Source of the DNA: a virus
Length of the DNA stretch: 40,134 nt
UHGV virus genome: UHGV-0210680
Reading direction: 5' to 3' (one strand)
Part shown: piece after piece, positions 9,378 to 39,328 of the stretch
How positions within the stretch are numbered: position 1 is the stretch's first letter
Layout of the letters: each line of letters begins with the position of its first letter
Notes under the pieces: generated by a model
Databases searched by the model: none
What the model saw: only the letters and a program-made list of their open reading frames with translations
Told to the model about the DNA's origin: nothing
Made by a program: the position numbers and the translations under genes

Positions 9378-10225
9378 TGGCGGATTCGAATCTCAATGTG
9401 CCGGTAATCATCCAGGCTACGCGGCTCGACACATCAGTCCTTCCACGCAATATCTTCTCGCAGTCATATCTGCTGTACGTTATCGCACAGGGTACTGATG
9501 TTGGTAACGTGGCGAACAAGGCCAACGAGGCCGGACAGGGCGCTTATGACGCACAGGTCAGAAACGATGAGCAGGATGTGATTCTCGCTGACCATGAGCA
9601 GCGAATTTCTGCTGCGGAAGCAACGCTTGTTAATCATGAGGAGCGAATCAGCCAGGCAGAATCAACTCTTCAGGAACATGAAACGCGAATCGCTCAGAAT
9701 GAAAGCGATATTGCGTCGCTTGATACCAGAGTTCAGTCGCTGGAGTCGCAGGTTTCAGACCATGAAACGCGCATCGATGCTCTGGAGTATGCCACTACTC
9801 GCAAGAAGTCAGAGGTTGTTTACTCTGGCGTATCTGTAACCATCCCGACAGCGCCGACCAACCTTGTTAGCCTGCTGAAAACGCTCACTCCGTCATCCGG
9901 CACGTTGGCACCATTCTTCGACACTGTTAACAACAAGATGGTTGTGTTCAACGAGAACAAAACCTTGTTCTTCAAGCTGTCGATCGTCGGGACGTGGCCC
10001 AGCGGAACCGCCAACAGGTCAATGCAGCTAACCTTTTCCGGCTCTGTTCCTGATACGCTGGTCAGCAGTCGTAATGCGGCGACAACAACCGACAACATCC
10101 TGTTAGCTACATTCTTCAGCGTGGATAAAGACGGATTTCTTGCCACAAATGGCAGTACGTTAACCATTCAGTCGAATGGTGCGGCGTTTACTGCCACAAC
10201 CATCAAGATAATCGCGGAGCAGTGA
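9377..10225 (+). CDS. tail needle protein (gp26-like) with C-terminal knob domain
   Basis: N-terminus ([38 protein letters not shown]) matches the P22 gp26 N-terminal domain, followed by heptad-like HE.RI repeats and a beta-rich C-terminal extension of about 120 aa that P22 lacks (Sf6-type needle, 282 aa). Confidence 0.85.
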
Positions 10226-10680
10226 TGATTCAGTTCAAACCAACGCGAAACATCGACCTGATAGAAGCCGTGGGAAATCACCCCGACATTATCGCCGGGA
10301 GCAACAACGGTGATGGATACGACTACAAGCCTGAATGCCGTTACTTCGAGGTGAACGTGCACGGGCAGTTCGGCGGCATTGTTTACTATCAGGAGATTCA
10401 GCCTTTGACCTTTGATTGCCACGCCATGTACCTGCCAGAGGTTCGTGGATTCAGCAAGGAAATCGGGCTGGCGTTCTGGCGATACATTCTTACTAACACC
10501 ACCGTTCAGTGCGTCACATCGTTCGCTGCGCGCAAATTCCGCCACGGTCAGATGTACTGCGCAATGATTGGCCTTAAGCGTGTAGGAACCATCAAGAAAT
10601 ACTTCAAAGGCGTGGATGACGTGACATTTTACAGCGCCACACGCGAAGAACTAATCGACTTCCTGAATCACGGGAGATAG
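10222..10680 (+). CDS. gp14-like virion assembly / ejection-associated protein
   Basis: 152-aa ORF at the position of P22 gene 14, between needle and gp7; assignment by synteny only. Confidence 0.6.
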
Positions 10681-26358: not shown

Positions 26359-27327
26359 TTAGTAGGTTATTTTTGTTGCGAATACTTCGCCTTTTACGAT
26401 GGCTGTTATGATATTTTTAGCAACATCTTCTGATGCACCAACCTTGATAAGGTCAGCAAGTATTTTGTTATTTACTTCTTTCCGGTGAGCTTTATCCTTT
26501 GCTCTACGCTCTTCTTCTTCCTTGATTCTTTTTTCTTCTGCTATTCTGGCTTGCTCTTTTGCTTCAGCCTCGCGCCGGATTCGTTCAGCCTCCTCCTGTG
26601 CTTTTCGGCGTTCTGCTTCAATTGCCGCCTGCTTTTCTCTTTCAGCTCGTTCTGCTGCCTCTTTTGCTTCGCGCTGTGCTCGTTTCTCGGCTTCAATGCG
26701 TTCACGCTCTGCACGTTCCGCTGCGGCCTTAGCTTCTGCTTCTCGCCTTGCTGCTGCTTCAATTTCGGCTTTTGCCTTTGCTTCTGCTTCTGCTCTGGCT
26801 CTCTCTTCAGCTTCTCTTTTTAAGCGTTCTTCATGCTCTCGCTTTTCCCGCTCCGCTTTGAGTCTTGCCTCTTCTCTTTGGCGGTCAAATTCGCGATCCA
26901 TCAAAATCGCTATTTCATGGTCAGACTCAATTTGCTTTGCGAGAGCTTCAGCTGCTGCCTTAGCTTCTTCTTCGGATTTAATCCGCGCCTGTTCTTCCTC
27001 ATAATCAGTAAGAGGCTGGCGCGCCTTGGCTTTCAGTTCATCAAGGCGATCGCGCACTGTCTTGCGGTTGGCATCAATTAGCTTTGGAATTTCCTTCAGT
27101 TCAGCAACAAGGTCTTTGCCAAGACCATCGAGATATGTTTTCGTCTGCGCAACTTTATACGCCAGAGAAGCGATCTCCTTTCTGCCCTTTGCCGTTGTGA
27201 TATCAGGCACAAAGGACATAACTTCACGTTCAACCTTTTGAAGGATTTCTTCAATCTGGTCGGCAGACTGAAATACAGTCATTGCATTTGCTTTTTCAAT
27301 AACAACTAAATCTGTTACTTCACTCAT
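26359..27327 (-). CDS. hypothetical protein with long E/R/K/A-rich helical (coiled-coil or single alpha-helix) region
   Basis: 322-aa ORF: a globular N-terminal ~110 aa, then ~170 aa made almost only of E, A, R, K (EAERRA/AEAKA-type repeats), then a ~40-aa C-terminal domain. Lies in the pL operon where lambda carries ea10. Confidence 0.6.
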   Translation of the reverse strand: MSEVTDLVVIEKANAMTVFQSADQIEEILQKVEREVMSFVPDITTAKGRKEIASLAYKVAQTKTYLDGLGKDLVAELKEIPKLIDANRKTVRDRLDELKAKARQPLTDYEEEQARIKSEEEAKAAAEALAKQIESDHEIAILMDREFDRQREEARLKAEREKREHEERLKREAEERARAEAEAKAKAEIEAAARREAEAKAAAERAERERIEAEKRAQREAKEAAERAEREKQAAIEAERRKAQEEAERIRREAEAKEQARIAEEKRIKEEEERRAKDKAHRKEVNNKILADLIKVGASEDVAKNIITAIVKGEVFATKITY

Positions 27328-27362: not shown

Positions 27363-27674
27363 TCAGGCTGCTGAGGTTTCTTCTTTCAGGCTTTCGATAT
27401 ATTTACGTGGGTCGTCGTAACATTGGCATTCGCTGTACCAATCTACCCAGCGATCCGTAAGCTCCATCTCTGATAAATCTTCATCAGTAAGGCTCTCATC
27501 CCACATCTCAAGGCCGTTAGCATTGCAGTAGTCAGGCTTGATGTTGTTGTCATACTGAAAGGCATCATAATCAGCCAGTGCATCCATCAGGCGAACACCC
27601 TCTTCAACACTTGCCACTTCTACAATGAACGGCTTCATAGGTACTTGCGGGATATGCCAGACACGTAATTTCAT
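27363..27674 (-). CDS. hypothetical acidic protein
   Basis: 103-aa ORF in the pL operon with a good coding appearance; no family recognised. Confidence 0.45.
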   Translation of the reverse strand: MKLRVWHIPQVPMKPFIVEVASVEEGVRLMDALADYDAFQYDNNIKPDYCNANGLEMWDESLTDEDLSEMELTDRWVDWYSECQCYDDPRKYIESLKEETSAA

Positions 27675-28331: not shown

Positions 28332-28532
28332 TCAGGCAGCCTTGTTATTCTGTTTACCAAGTTCTCTGGCAATCATTGCCGTCGTTCGTATTGCCCATTT
28401 ATCGACATATTTCCCATCCTCCATTACAGGAAACATTTCTTCAGGCTTAACCATGCATTCCGATTGCAGCTTGCATCCATTGCATCGTTTGAATTGTCCA
28501 CACCATTGATTCTTATCAATAGTCGTAGTCAT
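28332..28532 (-). CDS. ral: Ral restriction-alleviation protein
   Basis: 66-aa Cys-containing ORF (MTTTIDKNQWCGQFKRCNGCKLQSEC...) next to N in the pL operon, matching the size and position of lambda ral; sequence identity recalled but not verified. Confidence 0.65.
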   Translation of the reverse strand: MTTTIDKNQWCGQFKRCNGCKLQSECMVKPEEMFPVMEDGKYVDKWAIRTTAMIARELGKQNNKAA

Positions 28533-28610: not shown

Positions 28611-28937
28611 TCAAATAAGTGGTTTGCTGCCTAATTTCATTTTCTGGCGACCAACACAAGTCACACCCATTTCACTGCGTGGCTTGCTGTACCATGTGCG
28701 CTGATTCTTGCGTTCAATACGTTGCAGGTTGCTTTCAATCTGTTCGTGGTATTCAGCCAGCACCGTAAGGTCTATCGGATTCAGTGCGCTTTCTACTCGT
28801 GATTTCGGTTTGCGATTCAGCGAGAGAATAGGGCGGTTAACTGGTTTTGCGCTTACCCCAACCAACAGGGGATTTGCTGCTTTCCATTGAGCCTGTTTCT
28901 CTGCGCGACGTTCGCGGCGGCGTGTTTGTGCATCCAT
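28611..28937 (-). CDS. N: N antitermination protein
   Basis: From the ATG at 28937: MDAQTRRRERRAEKQAQWKAANPLLVGVSAKPVNRPILSLNRKPKSRVESALNPIDLTVLAEYH.QIESNLQRIERKNQRTWYSKP... matches lambda N, including the Arg-rich boxB-binding N-terminus. The track's upstream extension is not used. Confidence 0.92.
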   Translation of the reverse strand: MDAQTRRRERRAEKQAQWKAANPLLVGVSAKPVNRPILSLNRKPKSRVESALNPIDLTVLAEYHEQIESNLQRIERKNQRTWYSKPRSEMGVTCVGRQKMKLGSKPLI

Positions 28938-29047
28938 CTGGATTCTCCTGTCAGTTAGCTTTGAGTAACGCGCCGTGATGCTTATCTCCACGGTTGCTGT
29001 CTTGCAGCTGCATTTCGCGCTACTCAAAGCTTTCTGCTTTGAATGCT

Positions 29048-29080
29048 GCCCTTCTTCAGGGCTTAATTTTTAAGAGCCTC
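29048..29080 (-). promoter_or_regulatory. nutL site (boxB hairpin plus boxA-like element)
   Basis: The plus strand shows GCCCTTCTTCAGGGC at 29048..29062, the reverse complement of boxB GCCCTGAAGAAGGGC, followed by TTAAGAGCC; located between pL and N. Confidence 0.85.
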
Positions 29081-29119
29081 ACCTTCATGGTGGTCAGTGC
29101 GTCCTGCTGATGTGCTTAG

Positions 29120-29180
29120 TATCACCGCCAGTGGTATTTATGTCAACACCGCCAGAGATAATTTATCACCGCAGATGGTT
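29120..29180. promoter_or_regulatory. OL operators (OL1-OL3) overlapping leftward promoter pL
   Basis: Three 17-bp lambda-type operator sequences TATCACCGCCAGTGGTA (29120), CAACACCGCCAGAGATA (29144) and TATCACCGCAGATGGTT (29164); pL -35 and -10 hexamers (TTGACA and GATACT on the minus strand) overlap them. Confidence 0.85.
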
Positions 29181-29345
29181 ATCTGTATGTTTTTTATATA
29201 GATTTATTTTTTGCAGGGTTGTGTGGATTGGGAAGGTGATCGAGAGATCTGAATTGCGATGTTTAGTGAGTTGTATCTATTAATTTCAAAATAAATACAA
29301 TTGGTTATGTGTTCTTGGGTGAGGGGGATCGTGAGGCAAAGAAAA

Positions 29346-29363
29346 CCCGGCTCTGTGGCCGGG
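29346..29363 (-). terminator. rho-independent terminator (tIMM-like) ending the cI-proximal leftward operon
   Basis: CCCGGC-loop-GCCGGG hairpin followed on the minus strand by TTTTCTTTG, 8 nt downstream of the 310-aa ORF stop; positionally equivalent to lambda tIMM. Confidence 0.7.
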
Positions 29364-29370
29364 TGAGATA

Positions 29371-30303
29371 TTAAAGAACCGATTTAACAAGATGGTTTTT
29401 ACGGTACAGACCTATGCGATCATTGTGAATCTCAGTAGTCTCCACTAAAAGAGAAACAATCTGTCCGACCTTGTGTTTTTTTTGTATTAAATCTAGCATT
29501 TCAATCGGATAGGAAGCCTTTAAATGTTCACCACCAACATCAAGCTCCAGCTTCCCATATTTGGATAGAACGACCAGTTCGCCTGTAACCGTTTCAGTAA
29601 TGGGAGGGGATGAAATGGTTGATGTAAGTCTACTCACCAAGTACTTAATTTTATTGGAGTCAATAGTTGCCACCTTGGTGCCATTACTAAATGGACCGGT
29701 CCAACTTGCATCAAATGTTAAGTTGTGTTTATCGCATTCCTCTACGATTCTCTTAAGGCTTACAGTGGAATTGTATCCAATTTCAGCGACGTGATTCATG
29801 AAGTTGTTGTCGTCATCGCTTAACAACAAATCGAATATGCCTTTTACAGCCTTGCTGGGTACTGTTTCTACTAATTCTGCTATTCCTGTAGAGAAGGTGA
29901 CGCCCAATTTTGTAGACCCAGGGGATAAATCAGCCAGCCTGAGGTTTAAGGAGCTTTTCACGTCGTAGGGAACTTTTTTTGAGTCCTTGCCTGAGGCAAT
30001 TTTGTGTGTTGCTCTTTGTATTAGCGCTGCAAGATTTGTTGAAATAGCCCCAAGCAGCTCTAAAGGAATAGAGCCAAAGTCAACCTCAGAGCCTTTCAGC
30101 CGCAGCTCAAAAAAATCGATAAGTGGGTGCCGACTATCTTGCTTTAATTTTTCGGCCTTCAAATCGCTCAGATGAGAATCCATGGAGCGATAAAGAAGCA
30201 TGTCAGCAAAGGACCTGGTTTTGTTTTGCTTCATTGCATCGACTTCTTTTTGAATGAAATCAATGCGTTTATCGCAATTTTTAAACATTGATTTATCATT
30301 CAT
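29371..30303 (-). CDS. hypothetical 310-aa protein, second gene of the rexAB-slot cassette
   Basis: Soluble-looking K/S/L-rich ORF with no recognisable motif; its start overlaps the stop of the upstream nucleotidyltransferase-fold gene by 4 nt (ATGA); AT-rich relative to the lambda-like flanks. Confidence 0.6.
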   Translation of the reverse strand: MNDKSMFKNCDKRIDFIQKEVDAMKQNKTRSFADMLLYRSMDSHLSDLKAEKLKQDSRHPLIDFFELRLKGSEVDFGSIPLELLGAISTNLAALIQRATHKIASGKDSKKVPYDVKSSLNLRLADLSPGSTKLGVTFSTGIAELVETVPSKAVKGIFDLLLSDDDNNFMNHVAEIGYNSTVSLKRIVEECDKHNLTFDASWTGPFSNGTKVATIDSNKIKYLVSRLTSTISSPPITETVTGELVVLSKYGKLELDVGGEHLKASYPIEMLDLIQKKHKVGQIVSLLVETTEIHNDRIGLYRKNHLVKSVL

Positions 30304-30779
30304 AAAAAAATCCTCACTAACCCTTTCGGGTTTTCACTGCGATCAAAACCAAACCAACCGCGCCAGTAGCTACGCCAGTACTCATAATCATAGTTAGGGT
30401 CATCTAAATTCTTCATGAGTAGTAGGACATCAATTTTGTAGTTTTGTTTGATGTAGTTTCGGTCAAGCAAATTATCGACGCGGCCCCGAAGCATGACAGG
30501 TATTGAGTTTATATTGCTATAGTCACATACCAACAAAATATCAATATCATCAGGCTCTGGTTTAGACGTGGTGTATGAACCATCAACCCATATTTCTGTA
30601 AAACAGCCATATTGAGCAGATAATTCTCGAATAGATTCGAGTAGCTGTATAAAATTACAGTATAGCATGCCTCGCCTGGATGATGAAGGAAAGCAATCGA
30701 CACAATACGATTTTAATCCAGCTTCATCCATGTCATGGAACCCTGGCTCAAACAGGGGTGGGTAATTAATTTTATCCAT
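30300..30779 (-). CDS. small nucleotidyltransferase-fold (Pol-beta superfamily / MNT-like) protein, first gene of the rexAB-slot cassette
   Basis: 159 aa from the ATG at 30779 (AAGG RBS upstream); contains the h-G-S...D-x-D signature (IWVDGSYTTSKPEPDDIDILLV) and a later acidic residue (KIDVLLL) typical of minimal nucleotidyltransferases. The ORF track starts further upstream (30827), at a codon that is not ATG by my reading. Confidence 0.55.
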   Translation of the reverse strand: MDKINYPPLFEPGFHDMDEAGLKSYCVDCFPSSSRRGMLYCNFIQLLESIRELSAQYGCFTEIWVDGSYTTSKPEPDDIDILLVCDYSNINSIPVMLRGRVDNLLDRNYIKQNYKIDVLLLMKNLDDPNYDYEYWRSYWRGWFGFDRSENPKGLVRIFL

Positions 30780-30929
30780 AAAAAACCTTGCTATACATTT
30801 GTTTTTTTTTATTAAAAATCTAACCACCGAAATGGTGACGGCAAGATGTTACATGGGGTTACAATCAGCCAATACACCGCATTAAATAATTTTTTCACCA
30901 GCTATGCGCCGACCAGAACACCTTGCCGA

Positions 30930-31646
<717 letters not shown>

Positions 31647-31654
31647 TTAAATCT

Positions 31655-31718
31655 ATCACCGCGAGGGATAAATATCTAACACCGTGCGTGTTGACTATTT
31701 TACCTCTAGCGGTGATAA
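31655..31718. promoter_or_regulatory. OR operators (OR3, OR2, OR1) with divergent promoters pRM and pR
   Basis: TATCACCGCGAGGGATA (31655), TAACACCGTGCGTGTTG (31678) and TACCTCTAGCGGTGATA (31702) are lambda-type 17-bp operators; pR -35 TTGACT (31692) and -10 GATAAT (31714) precede cro, whose RBS is AGGAGG. Confidence 0.9.
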
Positions 31719-31734
31719 TGGTTGCATGTACTAA

Positions 31735-31944
<210 letters not shown>

Positions 31945-31951
31945 ATAACCC

Positions 31952-31983
31952 CGCTCTTACACATTCCAGCCCTGAAAAAGGGC
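31952..31983 (+). promoter_or_regulatory. nutR site (boxA CGCTCTTA plus boxB hairpin)
   Basis: CGCTCTTA at 31952 followed by GCCCTGAAAAAGGGC at 31969..31983, just downstream of cro. Confidence 0.85.
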
Positions 31984-32062
31984 ATCAAATTAAACCACAC
32001 CTATGGTGTATGCATTTATTTGCATACATTCAATCAATTGTTATCTAAGGAAATACTTACAT

Positions 32063-32375: not shown

Positions 32376-32537
32376 ATGACAAAACGTCGTAAGAAATACC
32401 AGGAAAAAGAAGAGATTCGACACCCTGATTCACCTGAGGGATTAGTGGTAGCCGCAGCAAATAACAGGGCGTTCGCAGAGCGCCTTGTTGGTGTTTACAG
32501 ACTAGCCAAAGCAGGAGTGAAACATGGGCGTCGTTAA
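32376..32537 (+). CDS. hypothetical small basic protein
   Basis: 53-aa ORF (MTKRRKKYQEKEEIRHPDSPEGL...) with a GGAG RBS, between cII and the O-like gene; below the ORF-track cutoff and found manually. Confidence 0.3.
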   Translation: MTKRRKKYQEKEEIRHPDSPEGLVVAAANNRAFAERLVGVYRLAKAGVKHGRR

Positions 32538-33414
32538 GTTAGCTGATTACAGGCATAACCCTGTACAACATCAGGAGGCATCCAGTATGGGGTATGTCTC
32601 TATACACCGCCAGTTTATGGACAGCAGGCTCTATAAGGACTCTCAGGCAGTACATCTTTGGCTTCACTTAATCCTCAAGGCTAATCACGAATCTACTGTC
32701 GTCAATACGGATATCGGGCCGATAACTGTTGATCGCGGTCAGATGATAACTGGACGCCCGTCGCTGGTCAGAGAAACATTCATCCCCGACAACAAAGTTC
32801 GGAGCTTATTACGGACTTTTGAGTCGAAAGGGATGCTTAATATTTGCTCGATGGGGAAGAAATTTAGCCTGTTTACAATCGTTAAATATGACGATTTTCA
32901 GGCAAAAAATTGTCCAACGGTTGTCCAACGGTTGTCCAACGCAAACACCAGTAATGGCGCGGCTCTCAGCGGAGATTGTCCAACGCTTGTCCAACGGTTG
33001 TCCATAAACAATAATATAAATAATATCTCTAATACTGACGTATTAGAGAGTGCCACAGCAGACAAAAAGTCTGACAAGAAAAAACCTTCCGTCAGCTGTC
33101 AGGATGTTGTCGATGCTTACCACGAAATCCTTCCTGAAGCGCCAAGAATCCGCGCACTGAATGACAAGCGTAAAAACCAGATCCGAACGTTCTGGCGCAA
33201 AGCCGGAGTGATAACCCGCCAGCTTGACGGGCATGGGTTCACGATGCAGGACTGGAGAAATTATTTGAGCTACGTAGGCGAAAATTGCCGATGGATGTTC
33301 GAAGAACGCCCAAACCATCAACGCGGAACCGTCTGGCACAAAAAGGGATTTGATTTCCTGCTTAACGACAATACCTACCTGAAAGTTCGTGAGGGTGAAC
33401 ACGATGACCGATAA
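32524..33414 (+). CDS. replication initiator (O-like) with internal origin iterons
   Basis: 296-aa ORF at the O position after cII; its central part is encoded by an array of TTGTCCAACG iterons followed by an AT-rich stretch, the organisation of lambdoid ori inside gene O. Confidence 0.8.
   Translation: MGVVKLADYRHNPVQHQEASSMGYVSIHRQFMDSRLYKDSQAVHLWLHLILKANHESTVVNTDIGPITVDRGQMITGRPSLVRETFIPDNKVRSLLRTFESKGMLNICSMGKKFSLFTIVKYDDFQAKNCPTVVQRLSNANTSNGAALSGDCPTLVQRLSINNNINNISNTDVLESATADKKSDKKKPSVSCQDVVDAYHEILPEAPRIRALNDKRKNQIRTFWRKAGVITRQLDGHGFTMQDWRNYLSYVGENCRWMFEERPNHQRGTVWHKKGFDFLLNDNTYLKVREGEHDDR
32910..33008. repeat. origin iterons: direct repeats of TTGTCCAACG(G/C)
   Basis: Three contiguous copies at 32910..32942 and three more at 32976..33008 (the last degenerate, TTGTCCATAAA), followed by an AT-rich segment (33005..33050). 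Confidence 0.85.
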
Positions 33415-34840
33415 TTTTTATGCGCCGCCCCATAGCATCGAGGCAGAGCAGGCGGTGATTGGTGGATTGCTTCTGGATGATGACAGCAGTGAGCGCGTCC
33501 AGAAAGTTCTGGCGATGCTGAAGCCTGACTCATTTTACAGCCGGCCACACAAAATCCTTTTCGAAGAAATAACCAGAATGCACCGGGAGCAAAAGCCAGT
33601 AGATGGCCTGACGCTTTTCGATGAACTGGAGCGTAAATCGTTAACGGCGTCTGTTGGCGGTTTTGCTTATATCGCTGAGATCGCAAAGAACACGCCAAGC
33701 GCAGCAAACATCGTTGCCTATGCAATGCAGGTTCGTGAAACCGCAATGGAACGCTACGCCATCAACCGCATGACTGAAGCGACGGAATTGCTCTATTCCC
33801 GCAACGGAATGACTGCAACGCAGAAGTACGAAGCTATTCAGGCGATTTTCACGCAACTGACAGACCATGCAAAAACCGGATCGCGTCGCGGCCTTCGCTC
33901 ATTTGGTGAGGTCATGGAAGACTGGGTTAGCGACCTTGAGAAGCGATTTGACCCGTCAGGTGAACAACGAGGAATGAGCACAGGGATCCCATCGCTGGAC
34001 AGGATGCTGTCACCGAAAGGTCTGGTGAAAGGCTCTCTGTTTGTCATTGGCGCTCGCCCTAAGATGGGGAAAACGACGCTATACAGCCAGATGGCAATCA
34101 ACTGCGCAGTGCATGAGAAAAAGCCCGCTCTGATGTTCAGCCTTGAAATGCCCGGTGACCAGATACTGGAAAAACTGGTAGGGCAAAAGTCAGGTGTTAA
34201 CCCCAATATTTTTTACCTTCCGGCGACAAATGACGCTGATGACGGCTATCAGGGTGATTACGATGGTGACTTCAACAGGGCGATCGAAACAGCCAATCGC
34301 TTGAGTGAAATCGACATGCTTTACATCGACGACACGCCGGGATTATCTCTGGCTCAAATCGTCAGCGAAAGCCGTCGAATCAAGCGAGAAAAAGGATGTG
34401 TTGGCATGATTCTGGTCGATTACCTGACACTAATGACCGCTGAAAAGGCCGATCGCAACGACCTTGCTTACGGCATGATCACCAAAGGACTGAAGAACCT
34501 TGCCAAAGAGCTTGATTGCGTTGTTGTGCTTCTGACACAGCTTAACCGCGCACTGGAAAGCCGAACCAATAAACGCCCATTACCAAGTGACTCACGAGAT
34601 ACAGGGCAGATTGAACAGGATTGCGATTATTGGGTGGGGATCCATCGTGAAGGTGCTTTTGATGACAGCGTTCCTCCTGGTGAAACCGAACTAATCCTTC
34701 GCCTCAATCGTCATGGCAATACCGGCACGGTGTATTGCATTCAGGCAAATGGCGCTATTTATGACACAGACCAACAGTCTGCTGAAATGCGCCGCCGTGA
34801 ACGCGAGGAACCGCAGTCCAAGAAGAAAGGAGGATTCTGA
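33404..34840 (+). CDS. replicative DNA helicase (DnaB-like, P22 gene 12-type)
   Basis: N-terminus PHSIEAEQAVIGGLLLD is the canonical DnaB N-terminal motif; Walker A GARPKMGKTT; Walker B-like ILVDYLTLM; start overlaps the O-like stop. Confidence 0.85.
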   Translation: MTDNFYAPPHSIEAEQAVIGGLLLDDDSSERVQKVLAMLKPDSFYSRPHKILFEEITRMHREQKPVDGLTLFDELERKSLTASVGGFAYIAEIAKNTPSAANIVAYAMQVRETAMERYAINRMTEATELLYSRNGMTATQKYEAIQAIFTQLTDHAKTGSRRGLRSFGEVMEDWVSDLEKRFDPSGEQRGMSTGIPSLDRMLSPKGLVKGSLFVIGARPKMGKTTLYSQMAINCAVHEKKPALMFSLEMPGDQILEKLVGQKSGVNPNIFYLPATNDADDGYQGDYDGDFNRAIETANRLSEIDMLYIDDTPGLSLAQIVSESRRIKREKGCVGMILVDYLTLMTAEKADRNDLAYGMITKGLKNLAKELDCVVVLLTQLNRALESRTNKRPLPSDSRDTGQIEQDCDYWVGIHREGAFDDSVPPGETELILRLNRHGNTGTVYCIQANGAIYDTDQQSAEMRRREREEPQSKKKGGF

Positions 34841-38544: not shown

Positions 38545-38868
38545 ATGAAGATGCCAGAAAAACATGACCTGTTAGCCGCCATTCTCGCGGCAAAGGAACA
38601 AGGCATCGGGGCAATCCTTGCGTTTGCAATGGCGTACCTTCGCGGCAGATATAATGGCGGTGCGTTTACAAAAACAGTAATCGACGCAACGATGTGCGCC
38701 ATTATCGCCTGGTTCATTCGTGACCTTCTCGACTTCGCCGGACTAAGTAGCAATCTCGCTTATATAACGAGCGTGTTCATCGGCTACATCGGTACTGACT
38801 CGATTGGTTCGCTTATCAAACGCTTCGCTGCTAAAAAAGCCGGAGTAGAAGATGGTGGAAATCAATAA
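38545..38868 (+). CDS. S: holin / antiholin S (dual-start motif MKM)
   Basis: 107-aa [65 protein letters not shown]..., matching lambda S107/S105 as recalled. Confidence 0.95.
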
Positions 38869-39328
38869 TCAACGTAAGGCGTTCCTCGATATGCTGGCGT
38901 GGTCAGAGGGAACTGATAACGGACGTCAAAAAACCAGAAATCATGGTTATGACGTCATTGTTGGCGGAGAGCTATTCACTGATTACTCCGATCACCCTCG
39001 CAAACTTGTCACGCTAAACCCCAAACTCAAATCAACAGCCGCAGGACGTTACCAGCTTCTTTCCCGTTGGTGGGATGCCTACCGCAAGCAGCTTGGCCTG
39101 AAAGACTTCTCTCCGAAAAGTCAGGACGCTGTGGCATTGCAGCAGATTAAGGAGCGTGGCGCTTTGCCGATGATTGATCGCGGTGATATCCGTCAGGCAA
39201 TCGACCGTTGCAGCAATATCTGGGCTTCACTGCCGGGTGCTGGTTATGGCCAGTTCGAGCATAAGGCTGACAGCCTGATTGCAAAATTCAAAGAAGCAGG
39301 CGGAACGGTCAGAGAGGTTGAGGTATGA
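38852..39328 (+). CDS. R: endolysin R (lambda-type lytic transglycosylase)
   Basis: 158-aa [56 protein letters not shown]..., matching lambda R as recalled; overlaps the 3' end of S. Confidence 0.95.

Follow-up and report, generated by a model that had tools for sequence, protein, structure and literature searches.

A two-gene cassette in the rex slot of a lambda-type immunity region

The window analysed here is a stretch of 40,134 nucleotides, the virus genome UHGV-0210680, and the element under study is a pair of genes, termed A and B, that lies on its minus strand next to a lambda-type cI repressor gene (Table 1). BLASTN comparison with lambda gave 99.1% identity over positions 30899-32000, which hold cI, OR and cro, and 91% identity over positions 29025-29364, which hold nutL, PL and OL up to the rexB stop codon and tIMM. 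With homology to lambda ending at 29364 and beginning again at 30899, the foreign segment was placed at 29365-30898: a cassette of 1,534 bp has been swapped for the 1,370 bp that carry rexA-rexB in lambda. The replacement of the rexA-rexB slot that had been proposed in a preliminary description of the sequence was found to be precise, with lambda cI on one side and tIMM and OL/PL on the other, the latter block stopping exactly where the lambda rexB stop codon sits. On the minus strand, cI is followed in turn by a 150-nt spacer, gene A, gene B, a hairpin terminator, OL/PL and N (28611-29027).

Genes A and B share the nucleotides ATGA at 30300-30303, as had been described, and a Shine-Dalgarno sequence for B (GAGGA) lies inside A, 9 nt upstream of the B ATG. 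The terminator behind B consists of a hairpin with a 7-bp GC-rich stem (29364-29345) and UUUUCUUUG, has a folding energy of -13.6 kcal/mol (z = -3.4 against shuffled sequences) and is located inside the lambda-homologous block 29025-29364. The cassette had also been described as visibly AT-rich; it is AT-richer than the window (39.6% versus 47.0% GC), but only modestly so, its place at the 7th percentile among segments of the same length not being extreme.

Table 1. Positions of the cassette, its parts and the neighbouring features in the window
Feature	Position	Strand	Remarks
Foreign cassette	29365-30898	-	119 nt of cassette-specific leader + gene A + gene B
Gene A	30300-30779	-	159-aa DUF6932/PDC-M63A minimal nucleotidyltransferase
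Nucleotidyltransferase catalytic core of A, residues 62-121	30417-30596	-	G67-S68, D78-x-D80, D117
Family-specific C-terminal motif of A, R136-S-Y-W-R-G-W-F-G-F145	30345-30374	-	R136-G141 and F143 invariant; W142, G144 and F145 at least 90% conserved
Gene B	29371-30303	-	310 aa, ATG start; N-terminal helical hairpin, central alpha/beta region, C-terminal OB fold
Gly129-Ser130 of B	29914-29919	-	Most conserved residues of the family; predicted flexible loop
C-terminal OB-fold domain of B, ~residues 231-310	29374-29613	-	AlphaFold2 model
Spacer, cI stop to A start	30780-30929	-	150 nt; first 31 nt lambda-like, remainder cassette
Intrinsic terminator, lambda tIMM position	29336-29364	-	Begins 7 nt past the B stop codon
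cI repressor	30930-31643	-	Upstream gene in the presumed cI-A-B transcription unit; 236/237 identical to lambda cI
OL operators and PL promoter, downstream of the terminator	29118-29190	-	Lambda sequence directly readable
PL operon, 103-aa phrog_1510 protein	27363-27674	-
PL operon, Ral homologue	28332-28532	-
PL operon, 322-aa protein	26359-27327	-

The pair matches the catalogued candidate system PDC-M63

Searches with PADLOC models matched A to PDC-M63A (PDLC04744) with an E value of 2.4e-41 (residues 17-174 of a 175-aa open reading frame (ORF), profile positions 1-148 of 152) and B to PDC-M63B (PDLC04749) with an E value of 7.5e-45 (residues 23-304, profile positions 20-300 of 309), and five further M63B models, six in total, also matched B. 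Both models are thus matched nearly full length by adjacent genes on the same strand, in the gene order found in 65 of 72 loci surveyed below. On these profile matches, the cassette is a member of the PADLOC candidate PDC-M63, a catalogued entity rather than a new kind of object. The earlier suggestion that the pair might be of an undescribed type had to be withdrawn: it is listed in PADLOC-DB v2 as candidate PDC-M63A/B, A belongs to Pfam family DUF6932 (86.9 bits, cutoff 27) and to phrog_9194, B belongs to phrog_6603 (E value of 3e-147), and phage mEpX1, sequenced in 2012, encodes proteins that are 100% identical to both. No NCBIfam match was obtained for either protein, and no Pfam family was found for B.

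Literature searches with DUF6932, PF22014, the protein accessions and mEpX1 returned no functional study, within an incomplete coverage of prophage-defence papers, and PDC-M63 was found mentioned, under the same incomplete coverage, only in one preprint, where it is described as never experimentally verified (bioRxiv 10.1101/2024.12.20.629700).

Gene A encodes a predicted minimal nucleotidyltransferase

The start of gene A is most likely the ATG at 30779 (159 aa) rather than the GTG at 30827 (175 aa), because the profiles align to the long ORF from residue 17 onwards, homologues measure 148-159 aa, and the mEpX1 and RefSeq annotations give a gene of 480 nt. The gap between cI and A, first taken to be about 100 bp (30828-30929), is therefore 150 nt. 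The nucleotidyltransferase (NTase) signature that had been recognised by eye, WVDGSYTTSKPEPDDIDILLV with a later KIDVLLL, is present and agrees with the motif rule of the Pol-beta superfamily in all its elements, namely hG[GS] (G67-S68), [DE]h[DE]h (D78-I-D80) and a third carboxylate (D117). Across 40 homologues, reaching down to 35% identity, W64, G67, S68, T71, K73, P76, D78, D80 and E149 are invariant, and D117 is conserved in at least 90%. An AlphaFold2 model built with an alignment of homologues as input has a predicted local distance difference test score (pLDDT) of 95.9 and shows the alpha/beta fold of NTases, with the catalytic residues on strands 60-66, 79-86 and 116-123. The N-terminal extension, put at ~60 aa beforehand, amounts to ~33 aa in this model, helix 34-57 already being the first of the NTase fold.

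The structures nearest to the A model are those of minimal nucleotidyltransferase (MNT) antitoxins (8xeh, 7ae2, 7bxo, 5yep), putative minimal NTases, and aminoglycoside and lincosamide NTases. MNT antitoxins and the aminoglycoside and lincosamide NTases move a single nucleoside monophosphate (NMP) onto a hydroxyl group. Weaker structural matches were to CdnB, CdnC, CdnD, DncV and poly(A) polymerases. Sequence-profile searches of solved structures with A and B gave nothing significant, the best matches for A being Pol beta and a cGAS/DncV-like nucleotidyltransferase (CD-NTase) at E values of 0.4-0.5; by sequence, A is a distant, self-contained NTase branch with no detectable solved relative. 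A is probably active as a minimal nucleotidyltransferase, because its catalytic residues are invariant or nearly so, its model reaches a pLDDT of 95.9, and its nearest structures are single-NMP transferases.

The conserved C-terminal motif of A, rich in arginine and aromatic residues, could bind nucleic acid, and would then fit an arrangement in which A is the toxin, modifying for example tRNA in the manner of AbiEii or MenT, and B its antitoxin. NTase-fold toxins are established in the abortive-infection and toxin-antitoxin systems AbiE (AbiEi/AbiEii) and MenAT, which likewise pair an NTase-fold protein with one partner in a two-gene module. The cassette differs from both, however, in that no DUF1814/AbiEii- or MenT-type match was found, the gene order is opposite and the partner is not a winged helix-turn-helix antitoxin, and such a reversal of roles is considered very unlikely.

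Gene B encodes an OB-fold protein with an invariant loop serine

The 310-aa product of B is not homologous to proteins of housekeeping or virion function. In a full HMMER scan, 1.84 billion cluster representatives yielded just 269 relatives, and nearly all the full-length ones measure 300-330 aa, which indicates a single architecture for the family. The AlphaFold2 model of B (pLDDT 82) contains a helical hairpin at ~10-56 and, at ~231-310, a five-stranded barrel with an inserted helix (pLDDT 88-94), an OB fold that resembles those of single-stranded DNA-binding proteins. Among 139 sequences, comprising B and diverse representatives of its family, the conserved core spans residues 57-150, and the OB domain and N-terminal helices are far more variable. 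Within the core, G129 is conserved in 99% and S130 in 100% of the sequences, Ser130 being the sole universally conserved polar residue of B; residues 123-129 have pLDDT values below 50. No hydrophobic segment was found in A or B (maximum KD19 of 1.38 for B), and B is taken to be soluble.

Some further features of the core can be noted. Although the cassette otherwise shows no sequence difference from PDC-M63, enterobacterial B proteins, including that of the window, have Ala142, Val145 and Ala212 where 87-94% of the wider family have Asp, Gly and Trp, and this branch may therefore function somewhat differently from the rest. Residues 62-146 (29866-30120 in the window) weakly match the N-terminus of another PADLOC candidate, PDC-M32A (376 aa), with an E value of 3e-5, which hints at a domain shared among candidate systems; the one paper found to mention PDC-M32 assigns it no function. 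A profile search with residues 57-150 against a database of 5.8 billion proteins returned only five fragments of the B family and no other architecture. The idea that the Gly-Ser...Asp core of B is a degenerate NTase related to A was rejected (hhalign probability 0.1%).

An OB fold beside an NTase also recalls two-gene defences in which the NTase produces a signal. Under this model, A would make a nucleotide or short oligonucleotide that B binds, perhaps through its OB fold, and by which B is switched on or held off, infection altering the level of the signal. In common with antiphage signalling systems based on cyclic oligonucleotides (CBASS), Hailong (HalB/HalA) and Clover (CloB/CloA), the cassette is a two-gene operon around a Pol-beta-superfamily NTase with an acidic catalytic triad, here with invariant catalytic residues; CD-NTases and poly(A) polymerases appear among the weak structural matches of A; and two-gene NTase-effector defences with inhibitory signals exist in Hailong and Clover (PMC13276650, PMC12265719). 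However, A is much smaller than CD-NTases, its 159 aa leaving out the extra domains of these enzymes and of the polymerases, and its best structural neighbours transfer single NMPs. No PADLOC model for CBASS or another signalling system was matched at E values up to 1. B, for its part, is neither a channel such as HalA, nor a deoxynucleoside triphosphatase, nor a known CBASS effector, and has no membrane segment, and the OB domain is its less conserved part and is not basic. A signalling role of this type is regarded as quite unlikely.

The pair is conserved across distant bacterial groups

To survey the pair across bacteria, one genome per species, for 100,044 species, was searched with conserved peptides of A, including its C-terminal motif. 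The 72 loci recovered come from Enterobacterales, other Proteobacteria, Desulfobacterota, Bacteroidota, Nitrospirota, Firmicutes, Parcubacteria, Verrucomicrobiota, Planctomycetota, Chloroflexota and Acidobacteriota. An iterated profile found B in 66 of them, and in 65 B follows A directly on the same strand, which bears out the treatment of the two genes as a unit in the preliminary description; the adjacency is an independent check, because position was not used in the search. Three metagenomic loci have the same layout. Over 56 loci, pairwise identities of A and of B are correlated (r = 0.83, with 0 of 999 Mantel permutations as high), B evolving faster, with a mean identity of 23% versus 34% for A.

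The 148 nearest neighbours of the loci include Cro/cI-type helix-turn-helix proteins, resolvases, RecE, terminase, a few PADLOC-listed proteins and many housekeeping genes. A conserved third gene was rejected because these neighbours are heterogeneous, as is expected of a mobile module. One copy adjoins a type I restriction-modification system and YoeB/YefM, one shares a mobile-element region with genes for a methylase, Lar and RadC, and one follows an ImuB-DnaE2 cassette. This sparse, patchy and context-independent distribution is that of a mobile accessory module, compatible with a role in defence rather than proof of it.

The six loci with A only say little about A proteins of the AB type: two, with housekeeping genes on their flanks, belong to a divergent solo subfamily in Emticicia, and the rest have truncated or divergent A genes and no B. 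In the two Emticicia loci (L061, L066; ~9923-10432), the solo DUF6932 protein has intact GS and DxD motifs and the C-terminal sequence AYWANWFGY, and is encoded at a conserved place between genes for a K+ transporter and an epimerase.

Disrupted copies of the pair can also be seen. In three loci (L018, L022 and L038), A is intact and B is split by a frameshift (~10.4-11.4 kb, or 9.4-10.4 kb in L038); one of the three is a metagenome-assembled genome, in which a sequencing error is possible. To judge from these sequences, A alone seems to be tolerated or harmless. In E. coli KL53 (L086, NZ_CP030919.1, 3430-4970), an IS4-like element, ISVsa5, is inserted in the 5' part of A, leaving a 111-aa remnant, and B is intact and identical; this copy is uninformative because the insertion also separates B from upstream transcription. 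Streptococcus phage MissE1 (OL774874.1) has an A-like ORF of 32% identity at 38826-39209, with no B homologue detected in the record.

The cassette recurs behind different repressors

All the enterobacterial phages and prophages examined carry the pair directly downstream of the repressor gene and divergent from cro, and at least 10 different repressors occupy this position. Lambda cI precedes the pair in the window and in E. coli R18, and a 212-aa cI does so in mEpX1, which has Nun/N downstream. The same repressor-A-B arrangement is found in PhiR30_1 and Erwinia phage vB_EhrS_59, behind two further S24-type repressors in the prophages of E. coli G3/10 and L6-21, and behind repressors of 127-235 aa in an uncultured Enterobacteriaceae genome, Silvania, Citrobacter and Proteus (L009-L012). 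The DNA of the cassette is 99.4-99.6% identical in mEpX1 and E. coli G3/10, behind different repressors. The cassette is nonetheless rare in both E. coli genomes and phage records, being present at 99% DNA identity or more in 18 of 5,426 complete E. coli genomes, and the pair in 3 distinct phages among 50,697 phage records.

Homology shared between these copies extends beyond the cassette by only ~25-55 nt on the cI side and ~30 nt into tIMM. The two junctions, at 30899-30954 (the last ~25 nt of cI and the 31 nt past it) and 29335-29364 (the tIMM hairpin), are common to phages with otherwise different repressors. Since the homology beyond the cassette is short on both sides, the junctions look like short shared linkers for lambdoid module exchange, at which recombination may swap the rex-slot module. 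The cassette is best described as a two-gene moron that is self-contained and horizontally mobile.

Transcription of the pair

In lambda, cI-rexA-rexB form a single transcript from PRM/PRE that ends at tIMM. By analogy, transcription of A-B in the lysogen most likely starts at PRM/PRE, passes through cI and ends at tIMM. It had been suggested that the gap upstream of A could hold a promoter of its own. On the coding strand of the spacer, no sigma-70-like site with at least 9 of 12 matches was found, and across seven divergent cassette spacers no conserved promoter-like block was seen, the Shine-Dalgarno region alone being shared. Nor was a convincing terminator found in the spacer, where a hairpin at 30842-30823 is weak and no better than shuffled sequence (z of -0.6).

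In the predicted RNA fold, the end derived from lambda is paired with cassette sequence through a 12-bp inverted repeat in the spacer (30917-30928 and 30839-30850, CGGCAAGGTGTT and AACATCTTGCCG); taken as a whole, the spacer has no significant fold (z of -1.4).

A candidate exclusion module in which A may control B

The reading favoured here, with a probability of about 0.5 for the whole package, is that the pair constitutes a phage-exclusion or toxin-antitoxin-like module in which B would be controlled enzymatically by A. A and B would be expressed in the lysogen from the repressor transcript, as in lambda cI-rexA-rexB. A would nucleotidylylate B, or act on it enzymatically in some other way, and thereby keep an effector or sensor silent, and B would be released once infection disturbs A, the supply of nucleoside triphosphates or the modification. 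MNT antitoxins nucleotidylylate and silence HEPN toxins, and the type VII toxin-antitoxin system HEPN-MNT (HepT-MntA) resembles the cassette in that the gene for a small minimal NTase comes first, with translational coupling to that of a larger partner, and in that MNT antitoxin structures are among the best structural matches of A; it differs in its partner, as B is not a HEPN-domain ribonuclease, a type marked by an Rx4-6H motif. Modification of B by A is the preferred form of control because the structural kin of A are single-NMP transferases, the layout with the small NTase first mirrors MntA-HepT, and the universally conserved polar residue of B is a loop serine. Ser130 is proposed as the candidate acceptor because of its complete conservation and the predicted disorder of the loop, although specific modification of this residue by A is doubtful.

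Several observations weigh against an exclusion module of this kind. When PDC-M63AB was deleted in its native host, E. coli NILS69, sensitivity to 10 virulent double-stranded DNA phages was unchanged (bioRxiv 10.1101/2024.12.20.629700). Pfam and structure searches found no recognisable toxic or effector domain in B and no HEPN fold, and the OB domain has a pI of 6.9, so that nucleic-acid binding is not implied. Non-enterobacterial copies are often flanked by housekeeping genes, and PADLOC matches are sparse among the 148 neighbours, as a raw count without a control set. Transcription of A-B from PRM is itself a presumption drawn from lambda.

The unchanged phage sensitivity of the deletion strain would also fit a pair that serves no defence at all. 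It might be a selfish stabilisation module, or provide some other prophage or host service, for example by modulating induction or the metabolism of DNA or RNA, and occupy the slot simply because this is expressed in lysogens. The many non-enterobacterial copies amid housekeeping genes or beside the ImuB-DnaE2 cassette point the same way, and PADLOC 'PDC' entries are computational candidates only. A non-defence function is nevertheless judged unlikely: the repressor-proximal slot of lambda holds the exclusion genes rexAB, some copies of the pair stand beside a type I restriction-modification system and a toxin-antitoxin pair or share mobile-element regions with methylase and anti-restriction genes, and a distribution this sparse and patchy, over many phyla, is typical of defence genes.

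By position, the pair compares with RexAB. Lambda RexAB is the oldest known and a still poorly understood exclusion system, and the repressor-proximal slot of lambdoid prophages, in which it lies, is expressed in lysogens. The cassette shares with it the slot between cI and tIMM/OL-PL and the form of a two-gene AT-rich moron that is presumably co-transcribed with cI. The proteins themselves differ: BLASTP of A and B against RexA gave E values of 0.9 or worse, scans of Pfam, PHROGs and PADLOC turned up no Rex family (RexB was not compared directly), and neither A nor B has a membrane segment, in contrast to RexB, a polytopic membrane protein. A bolder version of the exclusion reading, somewhat unlikely in full, would make PDC-M63 a mechanistically new phage-exclusion system, in which an OB-fold effector or sensor is restrained by an NTase through nucleotidylylation of Ser130 or synthesis of a ligand, and which would be a natural functional replacement of RexAB in wild lambda-immunity phages; the negative deletion test would then have missed its activity because the targets, for example temperate phages or specific mutants, lay outside the panel.

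The natural allelic exchange of rexAB for another module, in an immunity region otherwise identical to that of lambda, offers a clean and genetically tractable setting, with E. coli K-12, lambda-immunity lysogens and phage mEpX1, for a catalogued, unvalidated candidate, with predictions at D78/D80 of A, at S130 of B and for the OB domain as the variable sensing part. If active, the pair would extend the NTase-controlled immune and toxin-antitoxin modules by a new class of partner, an OB-fold protein whose Gly-Ser loop is invariant; if inactive, it would caution against reading all rex-slot morons or PADLOC 'PDC' matches as defence.

Other features of the window

The backbone of the window (1-25000 and 32524-34840) is that of a P22/Sf6/IME10-like podovirus, with portal, terminase, tailspike and Erf genes as well as genes for an O-like initiator and for a DnaB-like helicase, and it is joined to the lambda immunity region. 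The phage is a mosaic 'lambda-immunity' phage rather than a relative of lambda. A promoter-like site, TTGACA-17-GATACT, is located at 29146-29118 within the OL/PL region. Among the accessory genes of the PL operon are those for a phrog_1510 'superinfection exclusion' protein, a homologue of the restriction-alleviation protein Ral, and a phrog_1376/21365 protein of unknown function.

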